From the NCBI GenBank assembly GCA_913050195.1, contig CAJXBJ010000002.1, positions 1,818 to 65,817 on the forward strand: a stretch of DNA of 64,000 nucleotides. Reading direction: 5' to 3'. The position numbers and the translations under genes are program-made. Under the pieces are notes generated by a model. The model was not told where the DNA came from. It did no database searches and worked only from the letters and a program-made list of their open reading frames with translations. Below, one piece after another: positions 22,969-59,757 of the stretch. Each line of letters starts with the position of its first letter. Positions within the stretch are counted from its first letter, which is position 1. The DNA is from an uncultured Saprospirales bacterium. GTDB taxonomy: Bacteria; Bacteroidota; Bacteroidia; Chitinophagales; CAJXBJ01.

Positions 22969-22986
22969 AAAACTAAATTTATACAT

Positions 22987-23853: not shown

Positions 23854-23880
23854 TCAAAAACAAAATATTTCATTATATTT

Positions 23881-23917
23881 AATAACGGGAAGCATGAACC
23901 TTCCCGTTATTTTTTTC
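23881..23917 (+). terminator. Rho-independent terminator
   Basis: AATAACGGGAAG (23881-23892) pairs with CTTCCCGTTATT (23900-23911) around a 7-nt loop, followed by a T-run. Confidence 0.7.
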
Positions 23918-23942
23918 GTTTAACCTATCTGAAAAATGCAAT

Positions 23943-25238: not shown

Positions 25239-25249
25239 ATTAAAATAAT

Positions 25250-26608
25250 ATGCCAGATTTATCAATAGACTTTGCAGGAATTAAATCACCAAATCCATTT
25301 TGGTTAGCTTCTGCACCTCCAACAAATTCAGGATACCAAGTAATGAAAGCATATGATGCTGGCTGGGGAGGTGCTGTTTGGAAAACATTAGGCATGCCAA
25401 CTATAAATGTTTCTAGCCGCTATGCTGCAACAAATTATAGAGATACTAGAATTTCTGGATTTTCAAACATTGAGTTAATTAGTGACAGACCTTTAGAGGA
25501 TAATTTGCGGGAAATGCGGGAAGTAACAAAACGCTTTCCTAATCACGCTACTATTGCATCTTTAATGGTAGATACTAGAGAACAGTGGATTGATATTATC
25601 AAAATGGTAGAAGATGCTGGCGCTAATGGCATAGAGCTTAATTTTGGCTGTCCACATGGAATGTGTGAAAGAGGTATGGGCTCTGCAGTTGGACAAGACC
25701 CAAAAGCTTTAAAAACAATTGTCGAATGGGTCATGGATGCTGCAAGTATTCCAGTAATAACTAAATTATCACCGAATATTTCTCATATTACTGATCCAGG
25801 CATTGCAGCAGTTGAAGCTAAAACAGATGCAATATCCTTAATCAATACGATAAAAAGCATAGTAGGTATAGATTTAGACAGTTATGCTCCATATCCTGTA
25901 GTTGATGGAAAAGGGACTAATGGTGGTTACTGTGGACCAGCAGTAAAACCAATTGCCATGCACATGCTTAAAGAGCTTAAAAAACATCCATTAATTAAGG
26001 ACACTCCAATTAGTGGCATTGGAGGCATAGAAAATTGGAGGGATGTAGTAGAATACATTCTGCTAGGGGCTACTTCAGTGCAAGTATGTACTGCAGCAAT
26101 GCACTATGGATTTGGAATAGTTAGAGGCATGGAAGATGGCCTTAAAAGATTCATGAGTGAAAAAGGATATAACACTATTTATGATTTTGCAGGTAAAGCC
26201 CTGCCTAATGTCATGGAATGGAAAGATCTTAATCTAAAATATGATGTAAAAGCTAATATCAATTCTGATAAATGCATTGGTTGTGACCTCTGCTATATAG
26301 CCTGCGATGATGGAGCACACCAAGCAATAGCTTTACCTACGGATGGATCAAGGATTCCAAGTATTATTGAAGAAAATTGTGTTGGATGTAATTTATGCTC
26401 TTTAGTGTGTCCTGTAGAGGAATGTATTACAATGGTTCAGAAAGATGATGGAACTAAGCATAATACTTGGCAACAACTAACAGATTCTGAAGAAATTCCA
26501 TGTACTTGGAATGATGATCGTGCTGGAGGTAAAGGACACTACGTTCCTGAGCCAATTAAAGCTTTAGAATCGGTTAGAAAAGATCGATCAGGTGCAAGAG
26601 CAAAATAA
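25250..26608 (+). CDS. preA: Dihydropyrimidine dehydrogenase subunit PreA (DHOD-like TIM barrel + 2x[4Fe-4S])
   Basis: 'ELNFGCPHGM' and 'ISGIGGI', with C-terminal 'CIGCDLCYIAC' and 'CVGCNLCSLVCP'. Confidence 0.9.
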   Translation: MPDLSIDFAGIKSPNPFWLASAPPTNSGYQVMKAYDAGWGGAVWKTLGMPTINVSSRYAATNYRDTRISGFSNIELISDRPLEDNLREMREVTKRFPNHATIASLMVDTREQWIDIIKMVEDAGANGIELNFGCPHGMCERGMGSAVGQDPKALKTIVEWVMDAASIPVITKLSPNISHITDPGIAAVEAKTDAISLINTIKSIVGIDLDSYAPYPVVDGKGTNGGYCGPAVKPIAMHMLKELKKHPLIKDTPISGIGGIENWRDVVEYILLGATSVQVCTAAMHYGFGIVRGMEDGLKRFMSEKGYNTIYDFAGKALPNVMEWKDLNLKYDVKANINSDKCIGCDLCYIACDDGAHQAIALPTDGSRIPSIIEENCVGCNLCSLVCPVEECITMVQKDDGTKHNTWQQLTDSEEIPCTWNDDRAGGKGHYVPEPIKALESVRKDRSGARAK

Positions 26609-28342: not shown

Positions 28343-28558
28343 CAGTTTTGATATTTAGATCATCAATTTATCTTCAAGATATCAATTAATTGTAAGGGTA
28401 AAAAAGATAGTTATTATACACAACACCTAACAATTCACTTTACTAGATTAATTATTCTATATTTTTTCTTATTTTGAATTGATTAATAACTTATGATTTT
28501 CATATAGAGTTAGCAGGCCTAAAGATTTGTGCGTATTTTAGTAATGCAATATTTAGCT

Positions 28559-30328
28559 ATGACATTTAAACGTATCTTTTTTCTTATTGGATGCTCATTA
28601 ATAATGAGTATAAAGTTAAGTGCACAATGCACACCTAACCCTTCCTTATTTACAAATCCAGGAATTGAACCAGATACTATGCCTGTAGGCTATGCAAATA
28701 ATTTTTACGATGAGAATGTCTACTTCATGTTGCCTTTAGATACTCAAGGTTTTGCATACCAAAATATTGAAATTTCTTCTGTGGTTGGTCTTCCAATTGG
28801 AATGAGTTGGGAATGTGATATGGTTGCCAATGGATGTAATTATGTCCCTGCTAACAATCAATATGGATGTATCAGACTTTATGGTACTCCTATACAAACT
28901 GGCAACTTTTCAGCTATAGTAAATATTACGGCAACATTGAGCGTTGGCATATATCCAACAACAATGAGTTCCCCAATTACTATTTTACCAGATACTTCTA
29001 CGGGCGGCGGCTTTAATGCTGATATAACAAATGGATGTTTGCCGGTTACTGTTAATTTCACGAACAATAATCCCGGCTTAATGTACTATGATTGGGACTT
29101 TGGAAATGGGAATGTCTCTAGTTTAGAAAACCCAGGACCTCAAACATATACCCAAGAAGGCGTCTATATTGTAGACTATAAGGCATGGTCTGACACTAAT
29201 TTCTACTATATTTTAAATAGTATTACGATAACTTCTGTTCCAGATCAAAGCAATTATGGAACACTTGTAAATGACTATGATCCTGACCTTTATTTTATTC
29301 TTTATGATAATAATAATGTTCAAATATATCAGAGCGAGGTTATTGATGATACACAACCACCAATAACCTATAGCATACCAAACCTGAATCTTTCAAATGC
29401 TAATTATGAGCTACATCTCTGGGATAAGGACAGTGGTTGGTTTGGACTTGACCCTGATGATGACTTGGGCGTTGTGCCATTCAATGGATATGGAGGGAGT
29501 GGAAGTGCTTCTGCTCCATTTTCTGGAGGAGGAAATACAGCTTTTGATTATAGCGTGACTACAATACCGCCTAATTTCAGCACACAAGCTTCGGACACAA
29601 TTTATGTTCACAGTTACCCTACAAAACCAAATGTAGACTCAATTGGCACTAATTTATCTATTGACTCATCATATTACGCAATGCAATGGTATAAAGATGG
29701 ACAAATAATTGCTGGGGCATCAGACTCCGCTCACACAGCTAGCGGCACTGGTTATTATCACATTGTTGTCAAAAATGAGAATGGGTGTGAGATAGCATCT
29801 GACTCTATATTTATCATAGTATGCAATTACTTCTTCGGAGTAAACATCAATGTCAATGGCAATGTTGTTTGGACAGATTCAACCCAATATAACTTTCAAT
29901 GGTATTATCAAGGAAATCCAATACCTGGAGCAATAAACAATATTTATTTTGCTGATACTTCAGGATATTATTATGTTGTTGCTACAGATTCTTTTGGTTG
30001 TCAAAGTAATTCCAATCCAGTATTTGTTGACATTCCTACTGATACTACAGGAATTTCTGAAATAAGTATTTTAAGCAAACATATTAAAGTATTCCCGAAT
30101 CCTAGCTATGGAGAATTTAATATACACTTTGATATGCCTCTAAGGTCTAAAGATTGTGAAATTGAAATCTATGACCAAAGAGGCCTTTTATTGCAAAAGG
30201 AAACAATGGGTAGGATCTTAATTGATGATGTCAAAAAAATTGATATATCTAATTATCCGACCGGAATCTATGTTCTTAATATAAGGTTAGAAAAAGGGAA
30301 TATTAATAAACGCCTTATCAAGCACTAA
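28559..30328 (+). CDS. Secreted PKD-domain protein with T9SS type-A C-terminal sorting domain
   Basis: Signal peptide from the internal ATG at 28559. PKD motif 'WDFGNGN…GVYIV'. CTD 'VFPNPSYGEFNIHF…GIYVLNI'. Confidence 0.8.
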   Translation: MTFKRIFFLIGCSLIMSIKLSAQCTPNPSLFTNPGIEPDTMPVGYANNFYDENVYFMLPLDTQGFAYQNIEISSVVGLPIGMSWECDMVANGCNYVPANNQYGCIRLYGTPIQTGNFSAIVNITATLSVGIYPTTMSSPITILPDTSTGGGFNADITNGCLPVTVNFTNNNPGLMYYDWDFGNGNVSSLENPGPQTYTQEGVYIVDYKAWSDTNFYYILNSITITSVPDQSNYGTLVNDYDPDLYFILYDNNNVQIYQSEVIDDTQPPITYSIPNLNLSNANYELHLWDKDSGWFGLDPDDDLGVVPFNGYGGSGSASAPFSGGGNTAFDYSVTTIPPNFSTQASDTIYVHSYPTKPNVDSIGTNLSIDSSYYAMQWYKDGQIIAGASDSAHTASGTGYYHIVVKNENGCEIASDSIFIIVCNYFFGVNINVNGNVVWTDSTQYNFQWYYQGNPIPGAINNIYFADTSGYYYVVATDSFGCQSNSNPVFVDIPTDTTGISEISILSKHIKVFPNPSYGEFNIHFDMPLRSKDCEIEIYDQRGLLLQKETMGRILIDDVKKIDISNYPTGIYVLNIRLEKGNINKRLIKH

Positions 30329-32637
30329 AGTGTAAAAACCATTTTTACTGTATAATTCTGAGGAGCATCCATTAATCCAATGCGTCTGAAGTATTCATCA
30401 TTAGTTATATTCTTTCCTATAAAGCTAAGATTGATATTTTCTTTTACATCATAGGCAATTCTAATTGAATGCAAAACATCATAATCTCCATTATTGTCTA
30501 TGTATGTACCTAAGTGAGAAACTGCTTGCTCATACAATAAAGGTATTTTCTCAGGAAAGCTCATAAAGTTAAGATTGTATCCAACTCTAAATTTTTTCCA
30601 CTCCAATTCTATATCAGCCTTTAAAATATGCCTTGTCCTAAAGGCTAATATCTTATTTTCTAATTCTACCGCTTCTCCATCGCTATTGGTATAATCTTCA
30701 TATCGATTACCCATACCCCAAATAAAATTAGAAAAATACGTGCCCAAATTTCGCTGGCTTGAATCACCACCTAAGTCAGCTGGATAATTGTAAGAATACC
30801 CCAATAAGGTATTAATATTTACCTCACCAACTGTGCCCTTTCCAAAAACAGAAAGCTCATAACCCGCAACTCTTGAATCCGGCAGATTAAGTGGCTTTAA
30901 ACCTAAGTCATCTAATGTTGGCGCATTGCCTTCTTCTGGATAAAGGCCTAATGTATATTCAACAAAGTTTTTATATTCATTTAAGAAAAACGCTCCATCC
31001 AAGAATGCAGAAAAGTTACCAAAGTCAATTCTATGCTTCAGGCCTAATTCAGACCCCCATCCTGTTTCTGCTGCTAAATCCTGATTAGGTACAATTTTTA
31101 AGCCTGAAAAACTTGCAGAAATAAAGCGCTCCCCTATTGATGGTAATCGATAGGCCTGGCCTAACGATGCGCGAATTGAAGTTTTAGGCTTTAATTTATA
31201 ATTTAAACCAGCCCTAAACACTGGCAAAGCCGTTGAATATATTATATCCACTGCTGAAAGTTCATATCTAGCCCCCCCCATTATGCTAACTTTATCTTTA
31301 ATGTATTCTATTTGAGAATAAAACGCAGCGGCTCCTGTTGCTCTCCAACCCTCATAAAGATTACTTTTAGCAATCCCTACTTGTAACGGAAGACCGCTTA
31401 CAAGTTGTAGGTTATCATTAATTTTTTTCTGAAACTGATAATCCACCATCAATAAATTAGAATTAAATTGACTAGCATTATCAGATGGTAATCGTGTCAC
31501 ATTGAGAAATCTACCACGGACCTTATGATTATCTCCATTTTCCTTAACATATGTCCAATGAGGGTCTATATTATAACGTACATACTCATCATTACTACCA
31601 TCTAATCTGCGGTAAGCATTATCTAGAGCATCTTCTGCCAAAAAGAAGCGGCCACTATTTTCATACATGACATTTCCATTTACCCCATACATTAAGCCTG
31701 GCTTATCCGGATCTCTATAACGCAATTTAAAATTCGCACGATAACGCAATTCATCTCCTTTCCATAAGTATGAGAAATTATTGTAAAAATTAGCTCCAAC
31801 AACAACATCTGTATTTTTATATCGCTGGGCATGCGAAAAACTTAATCCTGTAAAAGACGGATGCTGCACATCCTCCCACCATACCATTTCTGGACGTGGT
31901 GGAGCTCCATATAAACCATGGAAAATTGATAACTTAGTTTCAGGTTCTGCCCCTGGCCATTTCGTAATTAAATTCACTATTCCATTTAAAGCTGAGGAAC
32001 CATAAACAACAGAGGCTGCTCCTTTAACCACCTCTATCTTATCCATAATTTCTATGGGGGCTTGCTTCATTTGAGGGTCATTCAAATCAGCACTAATCAT
32101 ATTCAGGTTATCAACTAAAACAGCAGTTCGAGCACCAACGCCATATGACCATGCACTTCCACCTCTAATAAGAATCTGTCCTTCCTGAACTTGCACACCT
32201 ACACTTTTATCTACAGCTTCACCTAATTCTATGGCATTGTTATTTTCTACCAAACTTGCATCTAATACATCCATAGAAATATTCTCTACAAGCATTTCTT
32301 TTTTATAGTTACTAGCTGACACTACATAAACATCTAGCTGATTACTTTTTTCCTGAAGAGTAATATTTAAATCAAGAACTTGATTATCCTCAATAAGTAT
32401 TTTTCGCTTGGTATTTTGAAAACCCATATAGGAAAAACGTATTTGGTATTCTCCGTTTCCAAGTTCAATCTTATAATCACCATTAATATCAGTTACTGTG
32501 CCCACAGAAACATTCGTCATAATATTGACACCAATTAAGCCTTCGCCTTTAACATCAGTCACCTTCCCTTTGATTCCTCCCAACTGTCCCCATACTGGCA
32601 AAACAGTTATCAGCATTAAAATACACAGTAAACGCAT
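30325..32637 (-). CDS. TonB-dependent receptor with CarboxypepD_reg-like N-domain
   Basis: 'GKVTDVKGEGLIGVNI…DINGDYKI', and the plug 'IEVVKGAASVVYGSSALNGIVNLITK', followed by a long beta-barrel. Confidence 0.85.
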   Translation of the reverse strand: MRLLCILMLITVLPVWGQLGGIKGKVTDVKGEGLIGVNIMTNVSVGTVTDINGDYKIELGNGEYQIRFSYMGFQNTKRKILIEDNQVLDLNITLQEKSNQLDVYVVSASNYKKEMLVENISMDVLDASLVENNNAIELGEAVDKSVGVQVQEGQILIRGGSAWSYGVGARTAVLVDNLNMISADLNDPQMKQAPIEIMDKIEVVKGAASVVYGSSALNGIVNLITKWPGAEPETKLSIFHGLYGAPPRPEMVWWEDVQHPSFTGLSFSHAQRYKNTDVVVGANFYNNFSYLWKGDELRYRANFKLRYRDPDKPGLMYGVNGNVMYENSGRFFLAEDALDNAYRRLDGSNDEYVRYNIDPHWTYVKENGDNHKVRGRFLNVTRLPSDNASQFNSNLLMVDYQFQKKINDNLQLVSGLPLQVGIAKSNLYEGWRATGAAAFYSQIEYIKDKVSIMGGARYELSAVDIIYSTALPVFRAGLNYKLKPKTSIRASLGQAYRLPSIGERFISASFSGLKIVPNQDLAAETGWGSELGLKHRIDFGNFSAFLDGAFFLNEYKNFVEYTLGLYPEEGNAPTLDDLGLKPLNLPDSRVAGYELSVFGKGTVGEVNINTLLGYSYNYPADLGGDSSQRNLGTYFSNFIWGMGNRYEDYTNSDGEAVELENKILAFRTRHILKADIELEWKKFRVGYNLNFMSFPEKIPLLYEQAVSHLGTYIDNNGDYDVLHSIRIAYDVKENINLSFIGKNITNDEYFRRIGLMDAPQNYTVKMVFTL

Positions 32638-32710
32638 TGATTTCTTTTATTTAAATGTAAAAAAAATATGACCGAATTAATAATAAGTTCAGCATTAATA
32701 TATCAAATTA

Positions 32711-33400
32711 TCAATCTTGCTTAATGACGGATTGAACAATTAGATACTGAGCAATAATATAAGTTGACATAATGAAAATACTTGATAAGGGAAATGGATA
32801 GCCAAAAGTACTAATGGCAATCATCATATCGGAAAGCATAAATAAGAAAGCCCCATAAAAGCTCAATTTATATACAAGTTCTTGACCAATACCCCAGCGA
32901 TTTAAACTACTTAAAAGCATCATAATTATTATAATTGTATAGCATAATACAGGAATGGCTAAACCCTTCATATTATACCATAGTGACCAATTCAATAAAA
33001 CCCCAAGCATCAAAAAAGGTAACACCAGCATAATATACTCCTTAATAAATCCATTGCTCCAACCCATTCCTGAGCCAATAGTGAATATATATATATAAGC
33101 TATATGAGCACAGAAAAATGCGGCCATGCCAATCAGAAAACAATTATCAAAACCAAGCTGATTCAACAATAAAAAAACATCGCCTACACCGGAAAAAAAC
33201 AAAGCTACAAGAAGCCCCCTAAAACGGGTTATATGCATATCCTTTTTAGTAACATAATTAACAATGACTAAAAACATCAACAAAGGCATTAATAATGGCT
33301 TTGTAAACATATGCCAACTCTGTATTGAAACAATTACATGCGTGAGACATTCTAAAAAGGCTATCACTAAAAACAATAGCTGTATTGCCCTAAGTACCAT
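32711..33400 (-). CDS. YhhN-family protein (lysoplasmalogenase-like, TMEM86 homologue)
   Basis: About 8 TM helices in 229 aa. 'LFFSGVGDVFLL' and 'FLFMLSDMMIA' are YhhN-type blocks. The gene overlaps the upstream gene by 11 nt. Confidence 0.7.
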   Translation of the reverse strand: MVLRAIQLLFLVIAFLECLTHVIVSIQSWHMFTKPLLMPLLMFLVIVNYVTKKDMHITRFRGLLVALFFSGVGDVFLLLNQLGFDNCFLIGMAAFFCAHIAYIYIFTIGSGMGWSNGFIKEYIMLVLPFLMLGVLLNWSLWYNMKGLAIPVLCYTIIIIMMLLSSLNRWGIGQELVYKLSFYGAFLFMLSDMMIAISTFGYPFPLSSIFIMSTYIIAQYLIVQSVIKQD

Positions 33401-34607
33401 TTGTCCTTATTAAGATAATCAAGTATAACAATGAGCTTAAAAGAATAGCTAGTACAATATAAAAAGCAAGTGATGTTATAATTGTTAATTCCATAAACCA
33501 ATATGCTATACAGATTGACATAAAGCAACGAATTGCATCTATTTTAAAAGCCCATTTTTTATCCTGCAACAATTTTGAGCAAGACCAAATACTAAATAAT
33601 AAAAATAGACTTCCAGCCATCTGAACATGGCTATTAAATCCTTTGAATTGCATCATAAAAAATGCTGTATAGGCCAATATAAATAAGTATTGAATAAGCG
33701 CATAAATACTTAAATGAAGAGATAATGGAAGGTTATATTTCTTATAGCTAGCTCTATCTATTTTAGAAGGCAGTATTGGACCACCCATATAGTCAGGCAT
33801 CCATCCAGGTTTATTAAAAAGGACTTTAAGCCCATCTAATGGTGATTTCACTTTGACCAATATTTTGGCTAAGCTTTTGAAGTGCGCAAAATTAGCCCAT
33901 ATAGGGTCCCATGAATTTATAGGAATAGTAATCCCATAGGTTGGTCTTTCTTCTTCTTCTTGAAAGGTTCCAAATAGCTTATCCCATATTATAAAAACCC
34001 CTGCATGGTTTTTATCAATATATTTTGGATTTTTCCCGTGATGAACTCGATGATGCGACGGTGTATTAAAAAGTATTTCAAACCATCCCATTTTATCTAT
34101 TGATTCTGTATGTATCCAAAACTGATATAGAGTACCAAAAGCATTGGCTAGCACAAAGTATTTTGGATCAAAACCGATTACAGCCAATGGGAAATAAAAG
34201 AAAAAAGTAAAAAATATTTGAAAACTACTCTGCCTTAAAGCAACAGAAAGATTATAATCTTCACTCTGATGATGAACAACATGTCCACCCCAAAATAAAC
34301 TTACTTCATGGCTCTTTCGGTGAGCCCAGTAATAACACAAATCGACGAGTATAAACAGAATCAAAAAAGTCCACCAGTTATTTGATATTGTCCATATCCT
34401 TAAATACTCGTAAATAAATACATAAACACCTACACTAACTATGGTTAAAAAAAAGCCACTAAGCTGCTGAATGATGCCACAACTTATATTAGTGATTGCA
34501 TCACTAAGACGGTAATGATTATCTTTTTTCCAATGCTGAAACAAAAGCTCTATAACTATCAAGCCAAAAAATACAGGTATTGCTAATATAATTGGTCCCA
34601 TATCCAT
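33390..34607 (-). CDS. Fatty-acid-hydroxylase-superfamily membrane oxygenase, alkylglycerol monooxygenase (AGMO/TMEM195)-like
   Basis: His boxes 'HRKSHEVSLFWGGHVVHHQSEDYNLSVALRQ' and 'TPSHHRVHHGKNPKYIDKNHAGVFIIWDKLFGTF'. As I recall, these mirror animal AGMO more closely than the sterol desaturases. Confidence 0.65.
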   Translation of the reverse strand: MDMGPIILAIPVFFGLIVIELLFQHWKKDNHYRLSDAITNISCGIIQQLSGFFLTIVSVGVYVFIYEYLRIWTISNNWWTFLILFILVDLCYYWAHRKSHEVSLFWGGHVVHHQSEDYNLSVALRQSSFQIFFTFFFYFPLAVIGFDPKYFVLANAFGTLYQFWIHTESIDKMGWFEILFNTPSHHRVHHGKNPKYIDKNHAGVFIIWDKLFGTFQEEEERPTYGITIPINSWDPIWANFAHFKSLAKILVKVKSPLDGLKVLFNKPGWMPDYMGGPILPSKIDRASYKKYNLPLSLHLSIYALIQYLFILAYTAFFMMQFKGFNSHVQMAGSLFLLFSIWSCSKLLQDKKWAFKIDAIRCFMSICIAYWFMELTIITSLAFYIVLAILLSSLLYLIILIRTNGT

Positions 34608-34692
34608 TACATTGCAATTTACTGATTCATAAGGCCTTATTCAAAATGACTCTTATATTTTTTGTAAATTGTGTTGATTAAAAAAAATAATA

Positions 34693-35193
34693 ATGAGATC
34701 CTTGCAAGATTGGCTTGATGCCTATGGTGTTTCTCACACAAACAAAACAAATAAGTTAATACATTGGATATGTGTACCTGTAATATTTTTTAATGTTATT
34801 GGTTTACTCTCCTGTATTCCGCATGATTTTCTAAGCAATTTAGTTCAAGCAGATAGTGTATTAACAGAATACATGCATTTTGGAACGCTAGTAGTTATAT
34901 TAGGAGGTGTTTTTTATTTACGTTTATCACCAACTATGTTTGTTGGTATTTTATTATGGTCTATATTTTGCCTTTGGGGGAATATTCAGCTTGCCAAATT
35001 AAGCCTAGGAGGAATGAACATACCTTTATGGCAATCTTCATTAGCGTTATTTGTCTTAGCTTGGATAGGACAGTTTGTAGGACATAAAATTGAAGGTGCA
35101 AAGCCTTCATTCTTTGAGGACTTACAATTTCTAATGATTGGTCCAGCCTGGCTAATGGCATTTATATACCAAAAGCTAGGCATAAAATATTAA
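34693..35193 (+). CDS. DUF962 / Mpo1-like membrane protein (2-hydroxy fatty acid dioxygenase family)
   Basis: 'YGVSHTNKTNKLIHWICVPVIFF' and 'GQFVGHKIEGAKPSFFEDLQFLMIGPAWL' match the YGL010w/Mpo1 family blocks. Confidence 0.75.
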   Translation: MRSLQDWLDAYGVSHTNKTNKLIHWICVPVIFFNVIGLLSCIPHDFLSNLVQADSVLTEYMHFGTLVVILGGVFYLRLSPTMFVGILLWSIFCLWGNIQLAKLSLGGMNIPLWQSSLALFVLAWIGQFVGHKIEGAKPSFFEDLQFLMIGPAWLMAFIYQKLGIKY

Positions 35194-35248
35194 TATCAAG
35201 GCTAACTCTTTAGTTATAAGATAGCCTTAATCTTAAGCTAATCATATA

Positions 35249-36766
35249 TCATACTCTGTACAGAGCATCCATATATTTTTTTAATAGTGTACTAACTGAC
35301 CCTCTTAAGGGCATAGAAGATGCCAAACCATAAACAGGGGCCATGCCTCCCGATTTCTTTTCTTTATTATTTTTAACTTTTTCAACGGCTTCTTTTAAAT
35401 CTTCAACAAATCGCTCTGCAACTCCCTCTTTCGTTTGTGCATTGGTTAAACATATATGTATACAGTTGGGCCGAATCAAACCATTTAGATTCCAATGCCT
35501 TTCTCCCATAAAGTCTAAAATCTCGAAGATATTATGTTCTGAATTAGTAGTGGTAAAAGAAATATTATAAAATGGCTCTCCCAGTATTTTTAATTCTGGA
35601 ATTGCATCGATTCCTTTTTTGATAGTATTGGCAGCGGTCATTATATTTTTAGCAATATTCATAAACCCTTCTTCACCAATAGATACAAGGCTAGCCCAGC
35701 ATGCAGCACTAAGGGCTCCAGATCGACTACCTGCCATTGTTGGGGAAAAATAAATACCTCCTGGCCATTCCGTATAAGTAAAGTATTGATAACTCCTTAA
35801 TTTCTCAGTACGATACAATACTACAGAAGTACCTTTAGGTGCAAAACCATATTTATGTGTATCTGCTGAAATAGATGTAACCCCATCCAAAGAAAAATCA
35901 AACGTAGGCACATTATAACCAAGCTTTTTAATCCATGGTAAAATAAAACCACCGAGACAAGAGTCTACATGTAAGCCAACATTATACTTTATGGCTAATT
36001 TAGAAAGCTTTGGAATAGAATCTACTACTCCCTGTGGGAATTGGGGAGCCGACCCTACAATAACAATTGTATTTGAGTTAATTGCTTTTTCTAATTTCTT
36101 AACATCAACTTGAAAATTCTTATCTACAGGTATTCTACGCAGCTTTATTTTTAAATACTCAGCAGCTTTATTAAAAGCAACATGAGCGGTGATAGGAATA
36201 ATCATTTCAGGCTTAGTGATACCCTTCTCTTTCCTTGCATAATCTCGATATGTCTTAATTGCCATTAATATGCTCTCCGTACCACCTGAAGTCACGGCTC
36301 CACAAACCTTGTCTGCACAATCTTTAGCGCCAAGCATATTTGCCGTCATAGACACAATCTCTGCCTCGTATTTAGCAATTGATGGAAATAAGTCTGAGTG
36401 TAAAGGATTCGTTTGAGAATTTATATTATAAACCTCATTCATAAAATCAATATGCTCCTGATAACCATGATAAACAGTTCCAGAACAATAACCCCCACCC
36501 CATCTTTGACTTTCTTCTTCTACTATTTCTCTCATTTGCTTTCTTATCTCATCATAAGAAACTCCTTTTGATGGCAGCTCTACATGCTTTTGGTAGCGTC
36601 CGTCATAGGGCCTAATTGTCTTATCTAACTCTTCCATTAAATCATTAGTCTGTTTTTCTATTTCTTTTTGAACTGCTGGTATTTTATCCAATATGTTTTT
36701 TTCAAGAAAATCAACCCAGCTACTAGGTAATGAACCAAGTTTATTTATGATGGCATCTTTATTCAT
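35249..36766 (-). CDS. Sphingosine-1-phosphate lyase-like PLP enzyme
   Basis: 'NPLHSDLFPSIAKYEAEIV', 'GGTESILMA', 'SADTHKYGFAPKGTSVVLY' (PLP lysine) and 'GGIYFSPTMAGSRSGALSAACWA'. These are very close to eukaryotic SGPL1/Dpl1 blocks as I remember them. Confidence 0.85.
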   Translation of the reverse strand: MNKDAIINKLGSLPSSWVDFLEKNILDKIPAVQKEIEKQTNDLMEELDKTIRPYDGRYQKHVELPSKGVSYDEIRKQMREIVEEESQRWGGGYCSGTVYHGYQEHIDFMNEVYNINSQTNPLHSDLFPSIAKYEAEIVSMTANMLGAKDCADKVCGAVTSGGTESILMAIKTYRDYARKEKGITKPEMIIPITAHVAFNKAAEYLKIKLRRIPVDKNFQVDVKKLEKAINSNTIVIVGSAPQFPQGVVDSIPKLSKLAIKYNVGLHVDSCLGGFILPWIKKLGYNVPTFDFSLDGVTSISADTHKYGFAPKGTSVVLYRTEKLRSYQYFTYTEWPGGIYFSPTMAGSRSGALSAACWASLVSIGEEGFMNIAKNIMTAANTIKKGIDAIPELKILGEPFYNISFTTTNSEHNIFEILDFMGERHWNLNGLIRPNCIHICLTNAQTKEGVAERFVEDLKEAVEKVKNNKEKKSGGMAPVYGLASSMPLRGSVSTLLKKYMDALYRV

Positions 36767-36767
36767 A

Positions 36768-38372
36768 CTACTTTTTTTTATTTAATCTTTTATATATCCC
36801 CTTATTACTTTTGTATATGTTTATGAACTCCTCAAACATTTTATCATAAAGTCCTTTAAGAGCCTTATTTGGCTTATATATTTTGTCTATAATTGTTTTT
36901 TCAGCAATTCCCTCAACATCTATATATCCGAGCCCAATCATAGCTAAAGCAGCAACACCTTTGGCATTGGCATGTCTTGGCTCATTAATTTGTTGAATTG
37001 GACGCTGTAAAATATCAGCAAGCACTTGACACCACAATGCAGACTTTGCACCTCCACCTATAAAGTTTATAAATTTAAATGGACGGTAAGCACTAGGCAC
37101 AAACTTGGATGTCTCAACATACTTTAGCAACCACCTTGCATTAAAGGCAACCCCTTCCATCACAGCGCGTATCATGTGTGCGCGAGTCATGTGCAGACTT
37201 AAATTATGCCATCCTCCACGTACATTATGATCCTCAATCGGTGTTCTTTCTCCATACAACCAGGGCGTAAAAATCAAACCTTCACACCCAGGAGATATTG
37301 TAGCAGCTAGCTCTGTCAACTTTTCAATAATATCTTCATCTGCTGCATCCGTATCCAATATATCTTTAGCAAAAAAGACATTGTTTTTAAGGAACTGTAA
37401 ACATACTGCAGCAGTTTCTTGTTCATTAGCTACAAAATATTTTCCTTCTAAAGCAGATGGCAAACTAGCCATATTATGAAAAACATCTGTCGCCTTATGT
37501 GGTATGTGACAAGTTAAAAATGAAGAAGTACCAAAACAAAGACCTGCTTCATAATCCCTTACAGCTCCAGTACCAATTGCTGCAGCTTGTACATCAGCTG
37601 TACCTCCAAATACCTTAATCCCTACCTTTAAACCTAATTGCTCCGCTATTTCCTTTTTCAATGTACCAATGATATCTATAGGCTTGGCTAAGTCTGGAAG
37701 TTTATCTCTTTCTATCCCTGTCCATTTAAGTAATTTGGGGTGATATTCAATATTATTAATATCTCTATTATCCATAACCCAATGTAAACACATAGTTTCT
37801 GGTGTTGAAACAAACTCTCCTGTTAAAATTAAGTTTACATAGTCCTTGGGCTCCAAAAACTTATATGTCTGTTTATAAACTTCAGGCTTTTCTTTTTTAA
37901 TATATAAAATATGGGCTATAGGATCTTTACCTGAATGCCCGGGCGCACCTCCAGTAATATTCATCCAGCTAAAAATCTTTGTAATTGAATATCCCTCAAT
38001 TTTAACTATACCATCGGTGATACGTTCAATTTCTGATGCCCCTCTTGAATCCATCCATATTATAGAATCCATTAAAGCCTTTCCTTGTTCATCAACGGCC
38101 ACTGTTCCTGACCATTGTGCAGTGACACTGATTGCCTCAATATCTTCAACATGCACAAAACCATTAGATATTAGTCGCTTAGTCGCTGTTTTGATAGCAC
38201 GCCACCACTGATTAGGGTCTTGCTCTGCACCTCCACCATCAAATAATTTTAAATCTATTGGTTCAAATTCTGTCCCAACGACATCAAAATCTGTGGATAT
38301 TATACAAACTTTAGGACCAGAAGTACCAAGATCAATAGCAAGTATGTATTTTTTATTCGGCGTTTTTATCAT
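36768..38372 (-). CDS. FGGY-family kinase (xylulokinase/glycerol-kinase fold), substrate unknown
   Basis: 'ILAIDLGTSGPKV', 'EQDPNQWW' and 'GGGAKSALWCQVLADI' are FGGY N- and C-domain motifs. The stop is 1 nt from the lyase start. Confidence 0.85.
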   Translation of the reverse strand: MIKTPNKKYILAIDLGTSGPKVCIISTDFDVVGTEFEPIDLKLFDGGGAEQDPNQWWRAIKTATKRLISNGFVHVEDIEAISVTAQWSGTVAVDEQGKALMDSIIWMDSRGASEIERITDGIVKIEGYSITKIFSWMNITGGAPGHSGKDPIAHILYIKKEKPEVYKQTYKFLEPKDYVNLILTGEFVSTPETMCLHWVMDNRDINNIEYHPKLLKWTGIERDKLPDLAKPIDIIGTLKKEIAEQLGLKVGIKVFGGTADVQAAAIGTGAVRDYEAGLCFGTSSFLTCHIPHKATDVFHNMASLPSALEGKYFVANEQETAAVCLQFLKNNVFFAKDILDTDAADEDIIEKLTELAATISPGCEGLIFTPWLYGERTPIEDHNVRGGWHNLSLHMTRAHMIRAVMEGVAFNARWLLKYVETSKFVPSAYRPFKFINFIGGGAKSALWCQVLADILQRPIQQINEPRHANAKGVAALAMIGLGYIDVEGIAEKTIIDKIYKPNKALKGLYDKMFEEFINIYKSNKGIYKRLNKKK

Positions 38373-38530
38373 TCTTATTACGATTTTGACTCACATTTCA
38401 ATAAAAATACTTTAATAGTCAAACCATTTTGAAGCATGAAGGTAATTTAAGCACATTCTTTGACATATATTAAATCGATAAATAAATGAATGGCGCTGAT
38501 AAATGCCTTAAAAAGAGAGATAAAAGAATT

Positions 38531-39373
38531 CTATAAAATAGCATTAGGCTTATTCCAATTAAGCCGGGCCTTATTAGCCGACAATATTTCAATGCCTTTT
38601 TCCCAATAATTCCCAACTCCTCCAATACCATGAGAATCATCTCCCGGTACAACCGCTACATCCATTTCAATCGCTTTATTCAATATTGGTAAACTTATAT
38701 AAGGCTCAGGCTGTCCCTTAACTAATGCCCTAAGGTTAAAATCTAATATTAAATTATGTTGTTTAACATAAGCTAAATTACGCTCTATCCTTTCCCATAC
38801 ATCCGGCAATAATAAAGTCTTCTTATACTCTGCATCAAAAATGCGAACTAGATCCATATGTCCAATAACTGACGGATTAAAGGCTTCCATTAATGCATAT
38901 TGAGCATCAAAGTAAGCGCAATACAGAGCTTGCTTTGAACCATATGCACTTATGCATTGACCATAAGTTTTAGGACTTGTATCCATTTCAATACCGGCCA
39001 TATGATGAACTGAACCAACGATATAATCAGGTTTAATTGCATGAATCCAATATTCTATGGCTTCTAAGCATCCTTCGTACCATTCCGTTTCAAAGGCTAC
39101 TAAGATTTCAATATCATTCCTGTATTTTTCTTTCAAATAATGAAGCCTATCTCCATATCGTCGGAAACTATCTTTCATACGTATAGCATTCCAACCAAAA
39201 GGCCTTTCAAAAGAGTAAATCCATTTATCTGATATTGGAGGCATGTGCTCAGTTATGCCAACCCATGAGTAGCCTGCTTTTATATAGGTCAAAATAATAT
39301 CTTCTAAAGCATCCTTTGCATGAAAACAATAAGAAGCTGAATGCCCCCCATGAACTGATACTTTTTGTATCAT
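38531..39373 (-). CDS. PHP-family phosphatase of the HisJ/His2 histidinol-phosphatase type
   Basis: 'VSVHGGHSASYCFHAKDALEDII…GITEHMPP', 'GSVHH', 'IGHMDL' and 'GDDSHG' form the PHP metal-ligand pattern. Confidence 0.75.
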   Translation of the reverse strand: MIQKVSVHGGHSASYCFHAKDALEDIILTYIKAGYSWVGITEHMPPISDKWIYSFERPFGWNAIRMKDSFRRYGDRLHYLKEKYRNDIEILVAFETEWYEGCLEAIEYWIHAIKPDYIVGSVHHMAGIEMDTSPKTYGQCISAYGSKQALYCAYFDAQYALMEAFNPSVIGHMDLVRIFDAEYKKTLLLPDVWERIERNLAYVKQHNLILDFNLRALVKGQPEPYISLPILNKAIEMDVAVVPGDDSHGIGGVGNYWEKGIEILSANKARLNWNKPNAIL

Positions 39374-40428
39374 TTTTGACCATTAAATTTAAATGCCAAA
39401 TAAACTGGTTGGTGATCAGAAAATTTAAAATCCATATTCAGACATTTAACTTCTTGAACTTCAATATTGGGAGATGCTAAATAATAATCAATAAGTGTCG
39501 TATTAGTCACTCCATGTTCATAATACGATAGCATTTGTCGATTAGTTGGAATTGTTGAATCATACAACCATTGCCAATCATCAGGCATAAAGTCGGCCGA
39601 GATATAGGTTCGCATATAATCAGAATCTTCATTAAATATTTTTGGATCAAAATTAGGTGGACACTGATTAAAGTCACCACCAACCAACACATAATTACCT
39701 GCATTATATTCTTTTAAAATAAAATCCTTTAAATATGCCATCTCTGATTTCTTAAGTTGACCCTTATCAAAAGCTGAATTATGATTATTAATTAATATGA
39801 ATTCTTTTTTATCTTCTGTTTTAAATCGTTTTACCAGAATACAACGATCAAGCATTAAGCATGATCGCGGCCAATCATAAGATGAAGGATATTGATGCAC
39901 TTCTACTTGAAATGCTTTTGTCCTACAAAAGCTTGCTAATCCAGATCTAACATACCCAATTGGATCTAAAAAAGGTTTAGGAATAAAATCCACATGTAAA
40001 TTATAGGTAAAGAAAGCCTGATGATCCATTAATAAACTATCGAAACGATATAATTGATTTATATAGTAGGACCTTTTTGATTTAATATCCAATTCCTGAA
40101 AAAGAATAAAATCTATAGATGACATCTGTTGAAGCAGACCTTCTATTCCCTTTAAATTCTTTTTTACATTGACTTTTGTTGTCCGCGCCTGTTTACCGCC
40201 ATCGTAAAAAAAATCAGATTCCTCACCCAAACCAGCATATCCAATATTCCAATTTAAAACTTGATAGAAAGAATCTATTTTTAGATAATCATCACCTATT
40301 TTTTGAGTGCTAATTATTTTAAAATCTTCAGGCTGATAATCCGTAAGTGTAGCATAAGAAAGGATAAGTATTAAGTAAATAATAAAAAGCACAAAAAGGC
40401 TATAAACATAAAGTGCGAAACGCTTCAT
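39370..40428 (-). CDS. Membrane-anchored endonuclease/exonuclease/phosphatase (EEP)-fold phosphoesterase
   Basis: N-terminal TM helix. 'LNWNIGY', 'LFQELD', 'NNHNSAF', 'GGDFN' and 'SDHQPV' are EEP catalytic blocks. There is an ATGA overlap with the PHP gene. Confidence 0.8.
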   Translation of the reverse strand: MKRFALYVYSLFVLFIIYLILILSYATLTDYQPEDFKIISTQKIGDDYLKIDSFYQVLNWNIGYAGLGEESDFFYDGGKQARTTKVNVKKNLKGIEGLLQQMSSIDFILFQELDIKSKRSYYINQLYRFDSLLMDHQAFFTYNLHVDFIPKPFLDPIGYVRSGLASFCRTKAFQVEVHQYPSSYDWPRSCLMLDRCILVKRFKTEDKKEFILINNHNSAFDKGQLKKSEMAYLKDFILKEYNAGNYVLVGGDFNQCPPNFDPKIFNEDSDYMRTYISADFMPDDWQWLYDSTIPTNRQMLSYYEHGVTNTTLIDYYLASPNIEVQEVKCLNMDFKFSDHQPVYLAFKFNGQK

Positions 40429-40430
40429 AT

Positions 40431-43337
40431 TTAGTACTTAAGCCATTTAAATGAATAAGCTTTATCATCACTTTGAATAATAACCTTATACATTCCATAT
40501 GACAAGGCTTGCAAATTTAAATTTTGAGTAATCAGATTAGACTCAAAAACACATTTACCTCCCAAATCAAATATTCTAACAAGATAAGGTTCTGAGTTAA
40601 TTATCCCATCAATATTCAAAATTCCATTAGAAGGATTTGGATAAAATCGAACAGCTTGATTTAAAGCTTCAATAAAGGTTAAGGCACTTACTTGTATACT
40701 ATCTTTTTTTATACATCCCACAGAGTCAATTAATGTCATGGTATATGTACCAGAATCTAAATTATATGCTGTATCTGTTGTTTGTAAAGCATTATCATTC
40801 CAGTTATATTGATAAGGAGGAACACCTCCTGATCCTTGTGCATAAGCCAATCCATCTTGTGCTCCAACACTAGATTCTGGACTGCTTCCAAGACTTAAAT
40901 TAAGTGTATCGGGTATTGCCAAATCAAGCCACATAGTATCTGTCTCACAACCGTGCTGATTTGTAAGCACTATTCCATGCTGTCCGCCAATCTTATTTGA
41001 ATCGATTACAAGGTAAGTAGCATTACCCGGCATGAAATCACTATAAGTGGTATCAATACTACCGTTTGAGTCAATAGACCAATAAGTCACTGAATAAGGA
41101 GCCATTGTATAGTATGTACTAATTTGAATAATGCCATTACTATCCTCGGCGCAAATGGGCCCTTCACCATATGCTTCAGCTATAAAGGTATCTGGCTCTT
41201 GCAAAACAAAATTAAAACTATCTACACATATCGTATTAGATACAGTAACCTGATATGAGTCAACTGCCAAATTAAGGGCAGCATTACCTACATTTGCTCC
41301 ATGGCTCCATATGTATGAATTATTATTACCCACTTGCATATTTGGATAAAGAACAATAATCCCATTCGAATCACCTTTACACACCGGATTAAATTGATTT
41401 GTTGAATCAATAAGAGCTGGCCCTTCACTTAAGGTTACAGAGTCAATAATTACACAGCCTGTTTGAGTAGTTACTGTTATGACATAAGTTCCGGCAGCTA
41501 AATTATTATTGCTATGCCCATTTACGCCATTGCTCCATTGAAAAGTACATGTACTAAATTGACAAGTACACCCTGAGGTTGTAATATCTGCCACACCATC
41601 ACTGCCCCCTTCACAACTTACATTTTGTTGAAACTTATGAATAACATGTGGGTCCTGAATATTGGCAAAATGATCTTCCTTACAGCCATTAGCATCCATA
41701 ATTCTAGCCCAATAAAAATTTGGTTCTAAACCATCTGCTAGACTATCAATAACATTATTGGAAAATTGATAAGTATATGGTGCTTGTCCTCCAATTACAG
41801 TAAAACTCATTTTACCATCACTAGCTCCATTACAGGAAATTTGCTCCACAGAAAAAGTAGCTAAGGGTATTGTATCACAGACCTTACCTTTAAAGTGATA
41901 TTGTCCATTGCTTTCTGTCCCTAGATAATTTGCCCATGCTATACCTTGTGGACCTACAGAGGCATCTAATTCAATTCGATTCAAAAAATAACCTTTAGCA
42001 CCCATGGGATTAAGACTATCTATACCCACTGCAAAAACAATATCTAAAGAATCATTATAATCAAGATCATTTATTAAAGCCGTTGAGCCCAAATTCTGTC
42101 CGTTGGAAGTATGTAGCAAATAAGAAGAGTCATTAAGATAGTCTCGCGCCATTAATTCATGTGACATCACACCCCCATTTGATTGAACAACACTTATAAG
42201 TAGTTCATCATAAGCATCACCATTTAGATCAGCAGCAATACAGGATGAAAACTGCATACTTCCAAAACTATCAATAGCTGTAACTACACCTGTGTAACCA
42301 TCAATCATTACCTGTTTATAATCCGTATACATTGTTTGTGAACCCTCAAATAGAGATAAAACAACATCTGGAATTATATTACCAGTAAAATAGCCAAGTA
42401 CTGGTGCTGCACTTGTTTCAAATCCAATAAAATCATGAGAATGCATTAACCAATACCCACTTCCATCATAAACCCTATATTGCCCATTGTAGCTAATAGA
42501 CACAATATCTAAAGTTGTATTTCCATTTAAATCTCCCAATGATACTGGGGCAATAAAGCCCTCACCTCCACCATTATTGAGAACATAAGCATTGCTCAAA
42601 TCCTCATTAATAAGATCCTGAAGTTTAGAAACATATAGATGACCATTTATAGTCTCCCCTCCAGTTCCATATATAATTTCCAAATCACCATCATTAGCTA
42701 GATCAGCAACTATAGGCGAGCAATAAGTTTCCTGACTATCAGGAACAACAGCCCTTGACAATATTTGTCCTGTTAATGCATCAAGAATCATTAAATGACC
42801 TGGTAAACGATTTGTATCCCAAGGCAAAGCATCTGGGTCTCCTCCATTTGAAACTAATAAATCACTGTACCCATCACTATTCTGATCAGGCAACCATTGC
42901 GCTGAATAAAATTGAAGCTGACCACTATCCTTTGGATTTAAACCATTTGAACTTGGCCAAAACTCCCAAATCAACTGACCTGTCGACCCATTAATAGCCT
43001 TAAAAATTGCGCTACGTCCTCCAATAAACACATCATCAATACCATCACCACTAATATCCTGAAATATTGCACTTCCAAAAACTTCGTCCCTAGCATTTAC
43101 TGACCACAGAACTTGACCATCTTTTCCATCAAAGGCTTGAATTGCATTCAGACGACTTTCTTCTGCAACGCCTCCTCCAACTATAATATCAAGTACACTG
43201 TCATTGTTCAGATGAGCTACTCTAGGACTAGAAAATTGATTTAAAGAATCACTAAATGTAGACCATTGAATTTGCTGGCCAGAAAGGCCAAACAAACAAA
43301 ACATAAATACAAAGCTTAAAAAGCCCTTTTTAATCAT
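40431..43337 (-). CDS. FG-GAP/VCBS beta-propeller + SprB-repeat protein with T9SS type-A CTD
   Basis: Repeated 'DLNGD/DISGDGIDD' FG-GAP calcium loops. SprB-type 'CNGASDG…PYTYQW' units. CTD 'FYPNPSNGILNI…GMYKV'. Confidence 0.8.
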   Translation of the reverse strand: MIKKGFLSFVFMFCLFGLSGQQIQWSTFSDSLNQFSSPRVAHLNNDSVLDIIVGGGVAEESRLNAIQAFDGKDGQVLWSVNARDEVFGSAIFQDISGDGIDDVFIGGRSAIFKAINGSTGQLIWEFWPSSNGLNPKDSGQLQFYSAQWLPDQNSDGYSDLLVSNGGDPDALPWDTNRLPGHLMILDALTGQILSRAVVPDSQETYCSPIVADLANDGDLEIIYGTGGETINGHLYVSKLQDLINEDLSNAYVLNNGGGEGFIAPVSLGDLNGNTTLDIVSISYNGQYRVYDGSGYWLMHSHDFIGFETSAAPVLGYFTGNIIPDVVLSLFEGSQTMYTDYKQVMIDGYTGVVTAIDSFGSMQFSSCIAADLNGDAYDELLISVVQSNGGVMSHELMARDYLNDSSYLLHTSNGQNLGSTALINDLDYNDSLDIVFAVGIDSLNPMGAKGYFLNRIELDASVGPQGIAWANYLGTESNGQYHFKGKVCDTIPLATFSVEQISCNGASDGKMSFTVIGGQAPYTYQFSNNVIDSLADGLEPNFYWARIMDANGCKEDHFANIQDPHVIHKFQQNVSCEGGSDGVADITTSGCTCQFSTCTFQWSNGVNGHSNNNLAAGTYVITVTTQTGCVIIDSVTLSEGPALIDSTNQFNPVCKGDSNGIIVLYPNMQVGNNNSYIWSHGANVGNAALNLAVDSYQVTVSNTICVDSFNFVLQEPDTFIAEAYGEGPICAEDSNGIIQISTYYTMAPYSVTYWSIDSNGSIDTTYSDFMPGNATYLVIDSNKIGGQHGIVLTNQHGCETDTMWLDLAIPDTLNLSLGSSPESSVGAQDGLAYAQGSGGVPPYQYNWNDNALQTTDTAYNLDSGTYTMTLIDSVGCIKKDSIQVSALTFIEALNQAVRFYPNPSNGILNIDGIINSEPYLVRIFDLGGKCVFESNLITQNLNLQALSYGMYKVIIQSDDKAYSFKWLKY

Positions 43338-59726: not shown

Positions 59727-59757
59727 TTATATTTGATAGCATAAGGTCGTGATATCA

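Follow-up and report, generated by a model that had tools for sequence, protein, structure and literature searches.

In eukaryotes, sphingoid bases are degraded by a short series of enzymes, namely a ceramidase, a sphingoid-base kinase (Lcb4/SphK), the sphingosine-1-phosphate (S1P) lyase Dpl1/SGPL1 and an aldehyde dehydrogenase, to which yeast adds Mpo1 for phytosphingosine. Here we discuss a block of genes at positions 30325–43337 of a 64,000-nucleotide stretch from an uncultured Saprospirales bacterium (contig CAJXBJ010000002.1; this whole 64-kb stretch is called the window) that would follow the eukaryotic pathway in its reaction order and shares homologous enzymes with it: an S1P lyase (SPL) and an Mpo1-like protein in the window, and a neutral ceramidase in relatives (PMC10398889). 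In yeast, Mpo1 oxidises the 2-hydroxy acid that arises from lyase cleavage of phytosphingosine-1-phosphate and thus acts directly downstream of the lyase, so that the Mpo1-like gene fits a lyase locus even better than an initial annotation of this DNA had claimed (PMC10398889). The kinase of the window, however, is of the FGGY type and not of the DAGK/SphK fold, no aldehyde dehydrogenase is linked, and the bacterial operon additionally comprises a TonB-dependent receptor, a HisJ-type PHP phosphatase and proteins of the type IX secretion system (T9SS).

Among bacteria, the SPLs of Symbiobacterium thermophilum (StSPL), Burkholderia and Legionella belong to the same enzyme family, and the window SPL is closest to StSPL. 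Whereas the Burkholderia and Legionella enzymes are described as virulence factors acting on the S1P of the host, the lyase described here is the second gene of a putative catabolic pair with its own kinase. Pseudomonas aeruginosa handles host sphingosine and ceramide through a sphingosine regulon (SphR, sphA, sphBCD, cerN) that includes a neutral ceramidase; it has neither a kinase nor a lyase, and its chemistry and transport components differ from those of the present locus. Two bacterial enzymes, dhSphK1 of Porphyromonas gingivalis (PG1348) and the Caulobacter ceramide kinase CpgB, phosphorylate a sphingoid base or ceramide at its C1 hydroxyl; both of them belong to the SphK/DAGK-like group and serve biosynthesis or signalling (PMC9045371, PMC10331486). 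Unlike these, the window kinase is of the FGGY type and linked to a lyase, and this linkage implies a role in catabolism. Lastly, the locus recalls the SusC/SusD polysaccharide utilisation loci of Bacteroidota in that a TonB-dependent receptor stands at one end of an operon of catabolic enzymes, near surface proteins. It differs from them in that the receptor is not of the SusC type (88 bits against the SusC/RagA model TIGR04056, with a cutoff of 368, for the N-terminal part only), no SusD domain was seen in the neighbours, and the likely substrate would be a lipid.

From our point of view, the block is best understood as a sphingolipid-utilisation locus of a marine surface Bacteroidota bacterium, the core of which is a cross-phylum module of FGGY kinase and S1P lyase, and we would give this reading a probability of about 0.6. 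All functional assignments here are drawn from homology and gene context. The initial annotation had proposed a locus for scavenging membrane lipids of several kinds. Its lipid-catabolic character is retained, with sphingolipids as the best supported substrate given that receptor, PHP, FGGY and SPL genes stand together with a ceramidase in relatives, whereas the set of enzymes for several lipids is not the conserved unit.

The kinase-lyase pair

Judged by its similarity to enzymes of known structure, the predicted SPL is unambiguously a member of the sphingosine-1-phosphate lyase family (EC 4.1.2.27). It matches StSPL (PDB 3mad) over residues 13–505 with 555 bits (E 9e-166), human SGPL1 (4q6r) with 423 bits (E 1e-125) and yeast Dpl1 (3mc6) with an E-value of 3e-117. 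The segments SADTHKYG, G(T/A)VYHG and NPLH are conserved in its alignment to StSPL; following the description of that enzyme, we take the first to be the site of the pyridoxal phosphate (PLP) lysine and VYHG and NPLH to hold the tyrosine and histidine of the phosphate pocket. No transmembrane (TM) segment is predicted for the protein. The Symbiobacterium enzyme was reportedly found by Bourquin and colleagues in 2010 (Bourquin et al.) to cleave S1P in vitro.

The 555 bits to a bacterial enzyme against 423 to the human one contradict the earlier view that the catalytic proteins of the block are closer to eukaryotic than to bacterial enzymes. Among the 120 best listed matches of SPL (54–99% identity), most are unnamed metagenome proteins, the named ones come from bacterial metagenome-assembled genomes (MAGs) and none carries a eukaryotic label. 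The same view fails for the FA_hydroxylase-superfamily protein of the block, whose listed matches are Bacteroidota where named, again with no eukaryotic label; by such matches, the block proteins belong to large bacterial families. A scan of genome contigs with the single SPL protein retrieved one distant locus only (L006, 41% identity; labels of this kind denote related loci that were compared with the window), and a tblastn search against plasmids yielded only relatives of 32–38% identity. Public annotations of this population list the kinase as K00854 (xylulokinase) and the lyase as K01634, while "glutamate/tyrosine decarboxylase-like" and "aminotransferase class V-fold" are names given to many homologues; the current names of these kinases and lyases are probably misleading for many database entries.

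The FGGY kinase encoded directly upstream of SPL scores below every NCBIfam equivalog cutoff (XylB, 293.5 bits against 380; gluconokinase, 215 against 649; GlpK, 126 against 590), XylB and gluconokinase being the best-scoring specificity models. Its homologues number in the thousands, and the best 120, which are 53–100% identical, include source labels of Spirochaetia, Leptospiraceae, Chloroflexi, Desulfobacterales, Polyangiales and Bacteroidota MAGs. In all of the first three distant contexts inspected, a gene for an SPL-like protein of about 505 residues directly follows the kinase. A metagenome scan with an alignment of the FGGY kinase added 80 further loci and thereby brought the total to 90, or 86 when redundancy is removed, in which the two genes were located by tblastn with the proteins of the window and counted as adjacent if they shared a strand and lay no more than 1.5 kb apart. 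By this measure, SPL adjoins FGGY homologues of 50–63% identity in 72 of the 86 non-redundant loci, which span many phyla, and it lies downstream of the kinase in all adjacent pairs but that of L077. In eight of the 14 loci that do not show this adjacency, the DNA ends less than 1.4 kb past the kinase.

No other gene accompanies the kinase to this extent. De novo clustering of 865 neighbouring open reading frames (ORFs) put the next commonest cluster in 10 of the 86 loci, where it is clade-specific, and in a Pfam scan of flanking ORFs no family exceeded 9 of 112; neither analysis revealed a recurrent aldehyde dehydrogenase, transporter or regulator among the neighbours of the 86 FGGY loci. Homologues of the YhhN, FA_hydroxylase and Mpo1-like proteins of the window were found in none of the 90 loci by tblastn at E <= 1e-3. 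Since SPL adjoins FGGY in 72 of 86 loci and these lipid genes in none, we conclude that the conserved unit is the FGGY-SPL pair and not the aldehyde-releasing trio.

As an observation on kinases without an adjacent SPL, the FGGY gene of two such loci, L072 (2–1168) and L082 (8708–12876), has a saccharopine-dehydrogenase-like gene directly upstream, and in L082 a gene for a RuBisCO-like protein lies convergently downstream; this kinase clade may serve another pathway.

In the window, an ORF map combined with Pfam and NCBIfam scans recovered every gene named between 30325 and 43337. The minus-strand genes follow one another as SprB/FG-GAP surface protein, EEP, PHP, FGGY, SPL, FA_hydroxylase, YhhN and TonB receptor, with the Mpo1-like gene inserted on the plus strand after SPL. 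The features, together with the gene beyond the receptor, are as follows.

28529–30328, plus strand: PKD-domain protein, secreted or at the surface, with a C-terminal T9SS sorting domain, 599 residues (Por_Secre_tail E 9e-12; PKD)
30325–32637, minus strand: TonB-dependent outer-membrane receptor, 770 residues (CarbopepD_reg_2, Plug, TonB_dep_Rec_b-barrel)
32711–33400, minus strand: YhhN/TMEM86-family membrane protein, candidate lysoplasmalogenase, 229 residues (PF07947, 137 bits, E 7e-40)
33390–34607, minus strand: di-iron membrane oxygenase of the FA_hydroxylase superfamily, subfamily like alkylglycerol monooxygenase (AGMO), 405 residues (PF04116 E 3e-28)
34693–35193, plus strand: Mpo1-like (DUF962) membrane protein, candidate 2-hydroxy fatty acid dioxygenase, 166 residues (PF06127 E 2e-20)
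35249–36766, minus strand: sphingosine-1-phosphate lyase (SPL), PLP-dependent, soluble, 505 residues (PDB 3mad E 9e-166)
36768–38372, minus strand: FGGY-family kinase, proposed sphingoid-base 1-kinase, 534 residues (FGGY_N E 9e-45, FGGY_C E 6e-27)
38531–39373, minus strand: PHP-domain phosphatase of the HisJ family, cytoplasmic, 280 residues (TIGR01856, 165 bits)
39370–40428, minus strand: membrane-anchored phosphoesterase of the EEP superfamily, 352 residues (PF03372, 33 bits)
40431–43337, minus strand: surface protein of the SprB-repeat/FG-GAP type, ending in a T9SS sorting domain, 968 residues (SprB, FG-GAP, Por_Secre_tail)

The genes are closely packed, with gaps of 1 nt between FGGY and SPL, 158 nt between PHP and FGGY, 73 nt between YhhN and the receptor gene and 2 nt between the stop codon of the SprB/FG-GAP gene and the start codon of EEP. 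The PKD-T9SS gene is convergent with the receptor gene.

Ceramidase-type operons of relatives

The link of the pair to sphingolipids is provided by two Bacteroidota lineages, one represented by an NCBI MAG (L094) and the other by L096/L008/L009, whose SPL is 62–63% identical to that of the window. In both, TonB receptor, neutral ceramidase, PHP, FGGY and SPL form a co-directional operon with intergenic gaps of 5–170 nt. The ceramidase matches PF04734 (Ceramidase_alk) with an E-value of 2e-109 and is 58% identical between the two lineages; its presence in the same operon ties the FGGY-SPL pair to sphingoid bases. The receptors heading these operons have 810–816 residues, and SprB/PKD T9SS proteins adjoin. 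A DAGK-type kinase domain was found neither among the called genes of the ceramidase-type loci nor, as the SphK/DAGK-type catalytic domain with its GGDG motif, in any protein of the window block or its flanks. Since the ceramidase would produce the free base, since SPL needs the 1-phosphate and since the FGGY protein is the sole kinase of the operon and fits no known specificity model, it is most likely a sphingoid-base kinase that would supply SPL and that is unrelated to the known SphK/DAGK-type kinases.

The ceramidase genes of L094 (5618–7360) and L096 (5788–7539) start 18–21 nt after the receptor gene. No signal peptide is predicted for either product, which implies that ceramide would be hydrolysed in the cytoplasm, and PHP, FGGY and SPL lack predicted TM segments. 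The neutral ceramidase of Pseudomonas is a secreted enzyme. In the literature searched, the coverage of which was incomplete so that a prior description is possible, we found no description of the FGGY-SPL pairing or of a ceramidase-PHP-FGGY-SPL operon. At even odds, we would propose that this FGGY clade represents a non-homologous bacterial sphingoid-base kinase which forms a two-gene catabolic module with a StSPL-type lyase, and that in marine Bacteroidota this module is coupled to a receptor, a cytoplasmic ceramidase and T9SS proteins as a "sphingolipid utilisation locus".

The window locus shares more with these operons than the pair. Its TonB receptor is a full-length homologue of the receptors in L094 and L096 (31–32% identity, E 1e-125), the sole such match in the window, and is the probable importer of the locus. 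The initial annotation had further drawn attention to the T9SS-secreted proteins that bracket the block. On its own this argument is weak, as the window encodes at least six T9SS cargo proteins, but it is strengthened by the fact that both bracketing proteins have homologues in orthologous loci: the PKD-T9SS protein is a full-length homologue (24% identity, E 3e-38) of a 615-residue T9SS protein beside the L096 receptor, which in turn is 52% identical to one in L094, where a SprB/T9SS protein adjoins the receptor, and the SprB/FG-GAP protein has a 53%-identical orthologue upstream of EEP in L007. This last locus (81% FGGY identity) keeps the whole SprB-EEP-PHP-FGGY-SPL order.

The PHP gene precedes FGGY in each of the five Bacteroidota-type lineages seen, and in L007, L008/L009, L012, L094 and L096 it does so immediately, at 47–68% identity, the value for the ceramidase-type loci being 47%. 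With 165 bits against the TIGR01856 (hisJ_fam) cutoff of 90 and 112 against the 133 of the HisJ equivalog NF005996, its product is by these scores a member of the HisJ family, not a HisJ equivalog. One could speculate that it is a phosphatase for phosphoethanolamine or another amino-alkyl phosphate, because phosphoethanolamine shares the 2-amino-alkyl phosphate moiety with histidinol phosphate.

EEP holds the position that the ceramidase has in relatives, and a 49%-identical orthologue is found at the same place in L007. The protein has an N-terminal TM segment (residues 1–31) and homologues in about 1800 representative clusters; PF03372 matches 42 of 42 aligned homologues, across which E112, D252/N254, D314 and D338-H339, presumably the catalytic residues, are invariant or nearly so. 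The best PDB match of the family profile is sphingomyelinase C of B. cereus (2ddr, E 1e-6), and the AlphaFold2 model reaches a pLDDT of 94.6.

Some further features of the related loci may be recorded here. On a Bacteroidota-like contig (L010, 8131–14680), genes of the Sulfatase/Phosphodiest families stand on both sides of FGGY-SPL, with a third nearby, and these neighbours may hint at sulfated or phospho-headgroup sphingolipids as substrates. Downstream of SPL, one relative (L094, 13379–17143; L095, 4806–8570) carries a reverse-transcriptase gene (RVT_1) together with HTH_3 and Gp49-like genes, an arrangement that resembles a small inserted element, either mobile or of a defence type. In L096 (11512–13252), a second, unrelated EEP protein (294 residues, PF03372 and PF22669) and a DUF1571 protein are encoded convergently after SPL, and L019 and L020, too, have a homologue of DUF1571 in the vicinity of FGGY-SPL.

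Lipid genes between lyase and receptor

As the initial annotation had stated, the YhhN, AGMO-like, Mpo1-like and SPL genes lie within about 4 kb; the calls were reproduced, and the four consecutive genes span 4056 bp (32711–36766). Such a run of four single-family lipid genes is far beyond chance. The Mpo1-like protein matches PF06127 with 73 bits against a cutoff of 24, and its gene is convergent with SPL and divergent from FA_hydroxylase, with which it shares an 85-nt intergenic region. An independent MAG (L098, SPL 77% identical) shows SPL, a convergent Mpo1-like gene (77% identity) and the start of a divergent FA_hydroxylase gene, the first 111 residues of which are 62% identical and in the same position, before the contig ends. 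L098 is the one close relative whose contig extends past SPL, and the relatives of 62% identity lack both Mpo1 and the AGMO-like gene; the gene lists of L094 and L096, both of the ceramidase type, include none of YhhN, FA_hydroxylase and Mpo1. As L098 keeps the order, the Mpo1-like and AGMO-like genes form a real, lineage-specific extension between SPL and receptor.

The protein of the FA_hydroxylase superfamily resembles AGMO (TMEM195) in its histidine boxes HRKSH, HVVHH and HHRVHH, an eight-histidine motif; its match to the AGMO C-terminal domain PF24858 is weak (12.3 bits, E 0.18; gathering score 28.3). YhhN resembles TMEM86 over the full PF07947 profile (positions 1–182 of 182) with about 8 hydrophobic segments. 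YhhN has no PDB relative by sequence, and no homologue of it was found in any related locus examined. We know of no AGMO-like protein from a bacterium that has been characterised.

Would these genes, then, make the block one co-regulated island that scavenges sphingolipids, alkylglycerols and plasmalogens with shared downstream steps, in which the FGGY protein might be the glycerol kinase of AGMO, as the initial annotation had it? The compactness just described speaks for this, as does the position of the FA_hydroxylase-YhhN genes, which lie on one strand between SPL and a TonB receptor whose orthologues belong to a sphingolipid operon. With the start of YhhN overlapping the end of FA_hydroxylase by 11 nt, the two genes are translationally coupled, YhhN is only the noted 73 nt from the receptor gene, and the SPL/Mpo1/FA_hydroxylase order recurs in L098. 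However, the absence of YhhN, FA_hydroxylase and Mpo1 homologues from all 90 related loci, as well as from the genes listed for L094 and L096, argues against the three aldehyde-releasing enzymes as a conserved unit, and so do three Cytophagales genomes in which none of YhhN, Mpo1 and SPL is linked to the AGMO-like gene. The Mpo1-like gene lies on the opposite strand, so the block comprises at least three transcription units. The proposal of a glycerol kinase likewise has to be dropped, as the protein reaches 126 of the 590 bits required for GlpK and its gene adjoins SPL, in 72 of 86 loci, where there is no AGMO-like gene. We thus regard a single multi-lipid island as unlikely and prefer to see the three further lipid genes as recruited between SPL and receptor in this lineage, beside the conserved sphingolipid core.

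A related question is whether the FA_hydroxylase protein is an AGMO at all. It could instead be a lipid hydroxylase, of the type that acts on C4 of sphingoid bases or on C2 of acyl chains, and form a two-step alpha-oxidation or hydroxy-lipid module with Mpo1. The superfamily also takes in SUR2, FA2H and OlsE, OlsE being the sole NCBIfam match of the window protein (55 bits), the AGMO C-terminal domain stays below its threshold, and the divergent arrangement with Mpo1 is conserved in L098. We nevertheless think this improbable, as close homologues pass the AGMO_C gathering score, among them P0141 (56% identical) with 28.8 bits for PF24858 at the same position, and as many of the homologues, to which all 8000 of 8000 scored candidates belong, carry the JGI label "alkylglycerol monooxygenase". 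In addition, the gene is coupled to YhhN, a member of another ether-bond-cleaving family, and its Cytophagales counterpart has no Mpo1 neighbour.

In the Cytophagales loci L091 (9438–11582), L092 (9457–11750) and L093 (9431–11612), the AGMO-like gene has two conserved neighbours, a divergent gene for a membrane protein of about 155 residues with no Pfam match and a small downstream gene that overlaps by 8–26 nt (122–173 residues; one weak BamE match). This trio stands beside gyrB/parC in two of the three genomes. The proteins of about 155 residues were considered as Mpo1 homologues and rejected, because neither BLAST nor Pfam produced a match and the histidine motifs are missing.

Proposed route, alternatives and setting

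If the block is a sphingolipid-utilisation locus, the following route can be imagined. The T9SS-displayed surface proteins and the TonB receptor would capture and import a sphingolipid-derived substrate, which in this lineage would be trimmed by the membrane-anchored EEP, while in relatives the cytoplasmic neutral ceramidase would free the sphingoid base. Going by gene context, the FGGY kinase would then phosphorylate the C1 hydroxyl of the base, in place of the SphK/DAGK-type kinases of eukaryotes and Porphyromonas. SPL, for which homology is strong and the presumed catalytic motifs are conserved, would cut the C2-C3 bond to yield a long-chain aldehyde and phosphoethanolamine, and the latter might, more speculatively, be hydrolysed by the HisJ-type PHP protein. 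As lineage-specific additions, the Mpo1-like protein would shorten 2-hydroxy acids that stem from bases of the phytosphingosine type or from N-acyl chains with a 2-hydroxy group, and the AGMO-like and YhhN proteins, whose genes overlap, would act on ether lipids, cleaving those of the alkyl and the alkenyl kind.

Such a route would matter in several respects. Many bacteria have S1P lyase homologues, but the kinase that supplies them and the role of these enzymes outside pathogens appear to be undescribed, and the FGGY partner, if it is a sphingoid-base kinase, would extend to lipids a family so far associated with sugars and polyols alone. The receptor-ceramidase operon would define a bacterial route for the consumption of sphingolipids and, if true, a TonB-powered uptake of a lipid. 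As sphingolipids are abundant in phytoplankton, in zooplankton and among the products of viral infection, the route would be relevant to marine carbon and nitrogen turnover and may, by extension, be of relevance to host-associated Bacteroidota.

A number of points weigh against this reading. The 64-kb window encodes no ceramidase from which free sphingoid base could come, and neither the genes of the locus nor the scanned ORFs on its flanks include an aldehyde dehydrogenase. It would also be unusual for a lipid to be imported through a TonB-dependent receptor. For the EEP model, Foldseek does not set sphingomyelinase apart from nucleases and phosphatases but ranks it 42nd, after TDP2, nocturnin and CNOT6L, the E-values being similar, so that removal of a head group would be no more than a plausible role for this protein. 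The FA_hydroxylase-YhhN gene pair was seen in this population only. The count of 72 in 86 draws on 80 metagenome loci picked by FGGY similarity, some of them near-duplicates, and SPL is not adjacent in five or six FGGY loci whose downstream DNA is long enough to hold it (L015, L039, L045, L072, L082 and possibly L081), with no common replacement gene among them. Most FGGY-SPL loci carry no further recognisable lipid gene. Finally, we know of no FGGY kinase that acts on a lipid or an amine, the characterised members phosphorylating sugars or polyols, and of no established physiological substrate of StSPL-type enzymes.

It can further be asked whether foreign lipids are the substrate, or whether the locus serves turnover or remodelling of the bacterium's own sphingolipids or of related amino- or sulfono-lipids. 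Bacteroidota make sphingolipids as well as a sphingoid-base kinase (PMC9045371). The L094 and L096 ceramidases without signal peptide, the cytoplasmic PHP, FGGY and SPL proteins and the housekeeping surroundings (gyrB/parC) of the AGMO-like gene in Cytophagales would suit such a function. The TonB receptor at the head of the relatives' operon and the T9SS surface proteins as its conserved neighbours point to uptake instead, and the FGGY-SPL pair also carries labels of Leptospiraceae and Chloroflexi, which are not known to make sphingolipids; we hold a purely internal role to be quite unlikely. Least convincing of all is the idea that FGGY and the SPL-like enzyme serve to break down an amino-polyol (a soluble 2-amino-1,3-diol, not a lipid) and that the lipid genes nearby are coincidental or secondary, which would agree with the sugar and polyol substrates and the XylB and gluconokinase models of FGGY kinases, with the scarcity of lipid neighbours and with the lack of a known natural substrate for StSPL, but is made very improbable by the neutral ceramidase directly in the operon of two lineages, by the Mpo1, AGMO-like and YhhN genes that adjoin the pair in the window and by the strong scores of SPL against enzymes deposited as sphingosine-1-phosphate lyases.

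Regarding the setting of the sphingolipid-utilisation locus proposed here, exact sequence matches from Tara station 123 (0.45–0.8 um fraction) assign the DNA to a marine surface population. A mobile genomic island or horizontal transfer finds no support: the window holds 0 tRNAs and 0 Rfam matches, its short imperfect repeats are not significant, no integrase domain is present in the locus or the flanking ORFs scanned, and GC content is flat at about 0.34. This agrees with the initial annotation, which had seen no tRNA, integrase or repeats and hence no sign of recent mobility. A promoter and terminator scan was uninformative (78 promoter-like sites against 77.7 expected, with no clear motifs in intergenic regions).

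Away from the locus, GC content rises to as much as 0.426 at 60001–62000, compared with about 0.35 elsewhere, within the gene for a 1173-residue PKD/PKD_6/CHU_C protein (59749–63270), which probably reflects the composition of its repeat domains. Just before this gene, and between two large PKD/CHU_C T9SS proteins, lies that of a PhoD-like phosphatase with a T9SS C-terminal sorting domain (57864–59726), presumably a secreted or surface alkaline phosphatase. On the other side, positions 21586–26608 hold an apparent operon for reductive pyrimidine catabolism, with a dihydropyrimidinase-like amidohydrolase, a beta-ureidopropionase-like CN_hydrolase, two dihydropyrimidine-dehydrogenase-like subunits (Fer4_20/Pyr_redox_2 and DHO_dh/Fer4_21) and then a nitroreductase.

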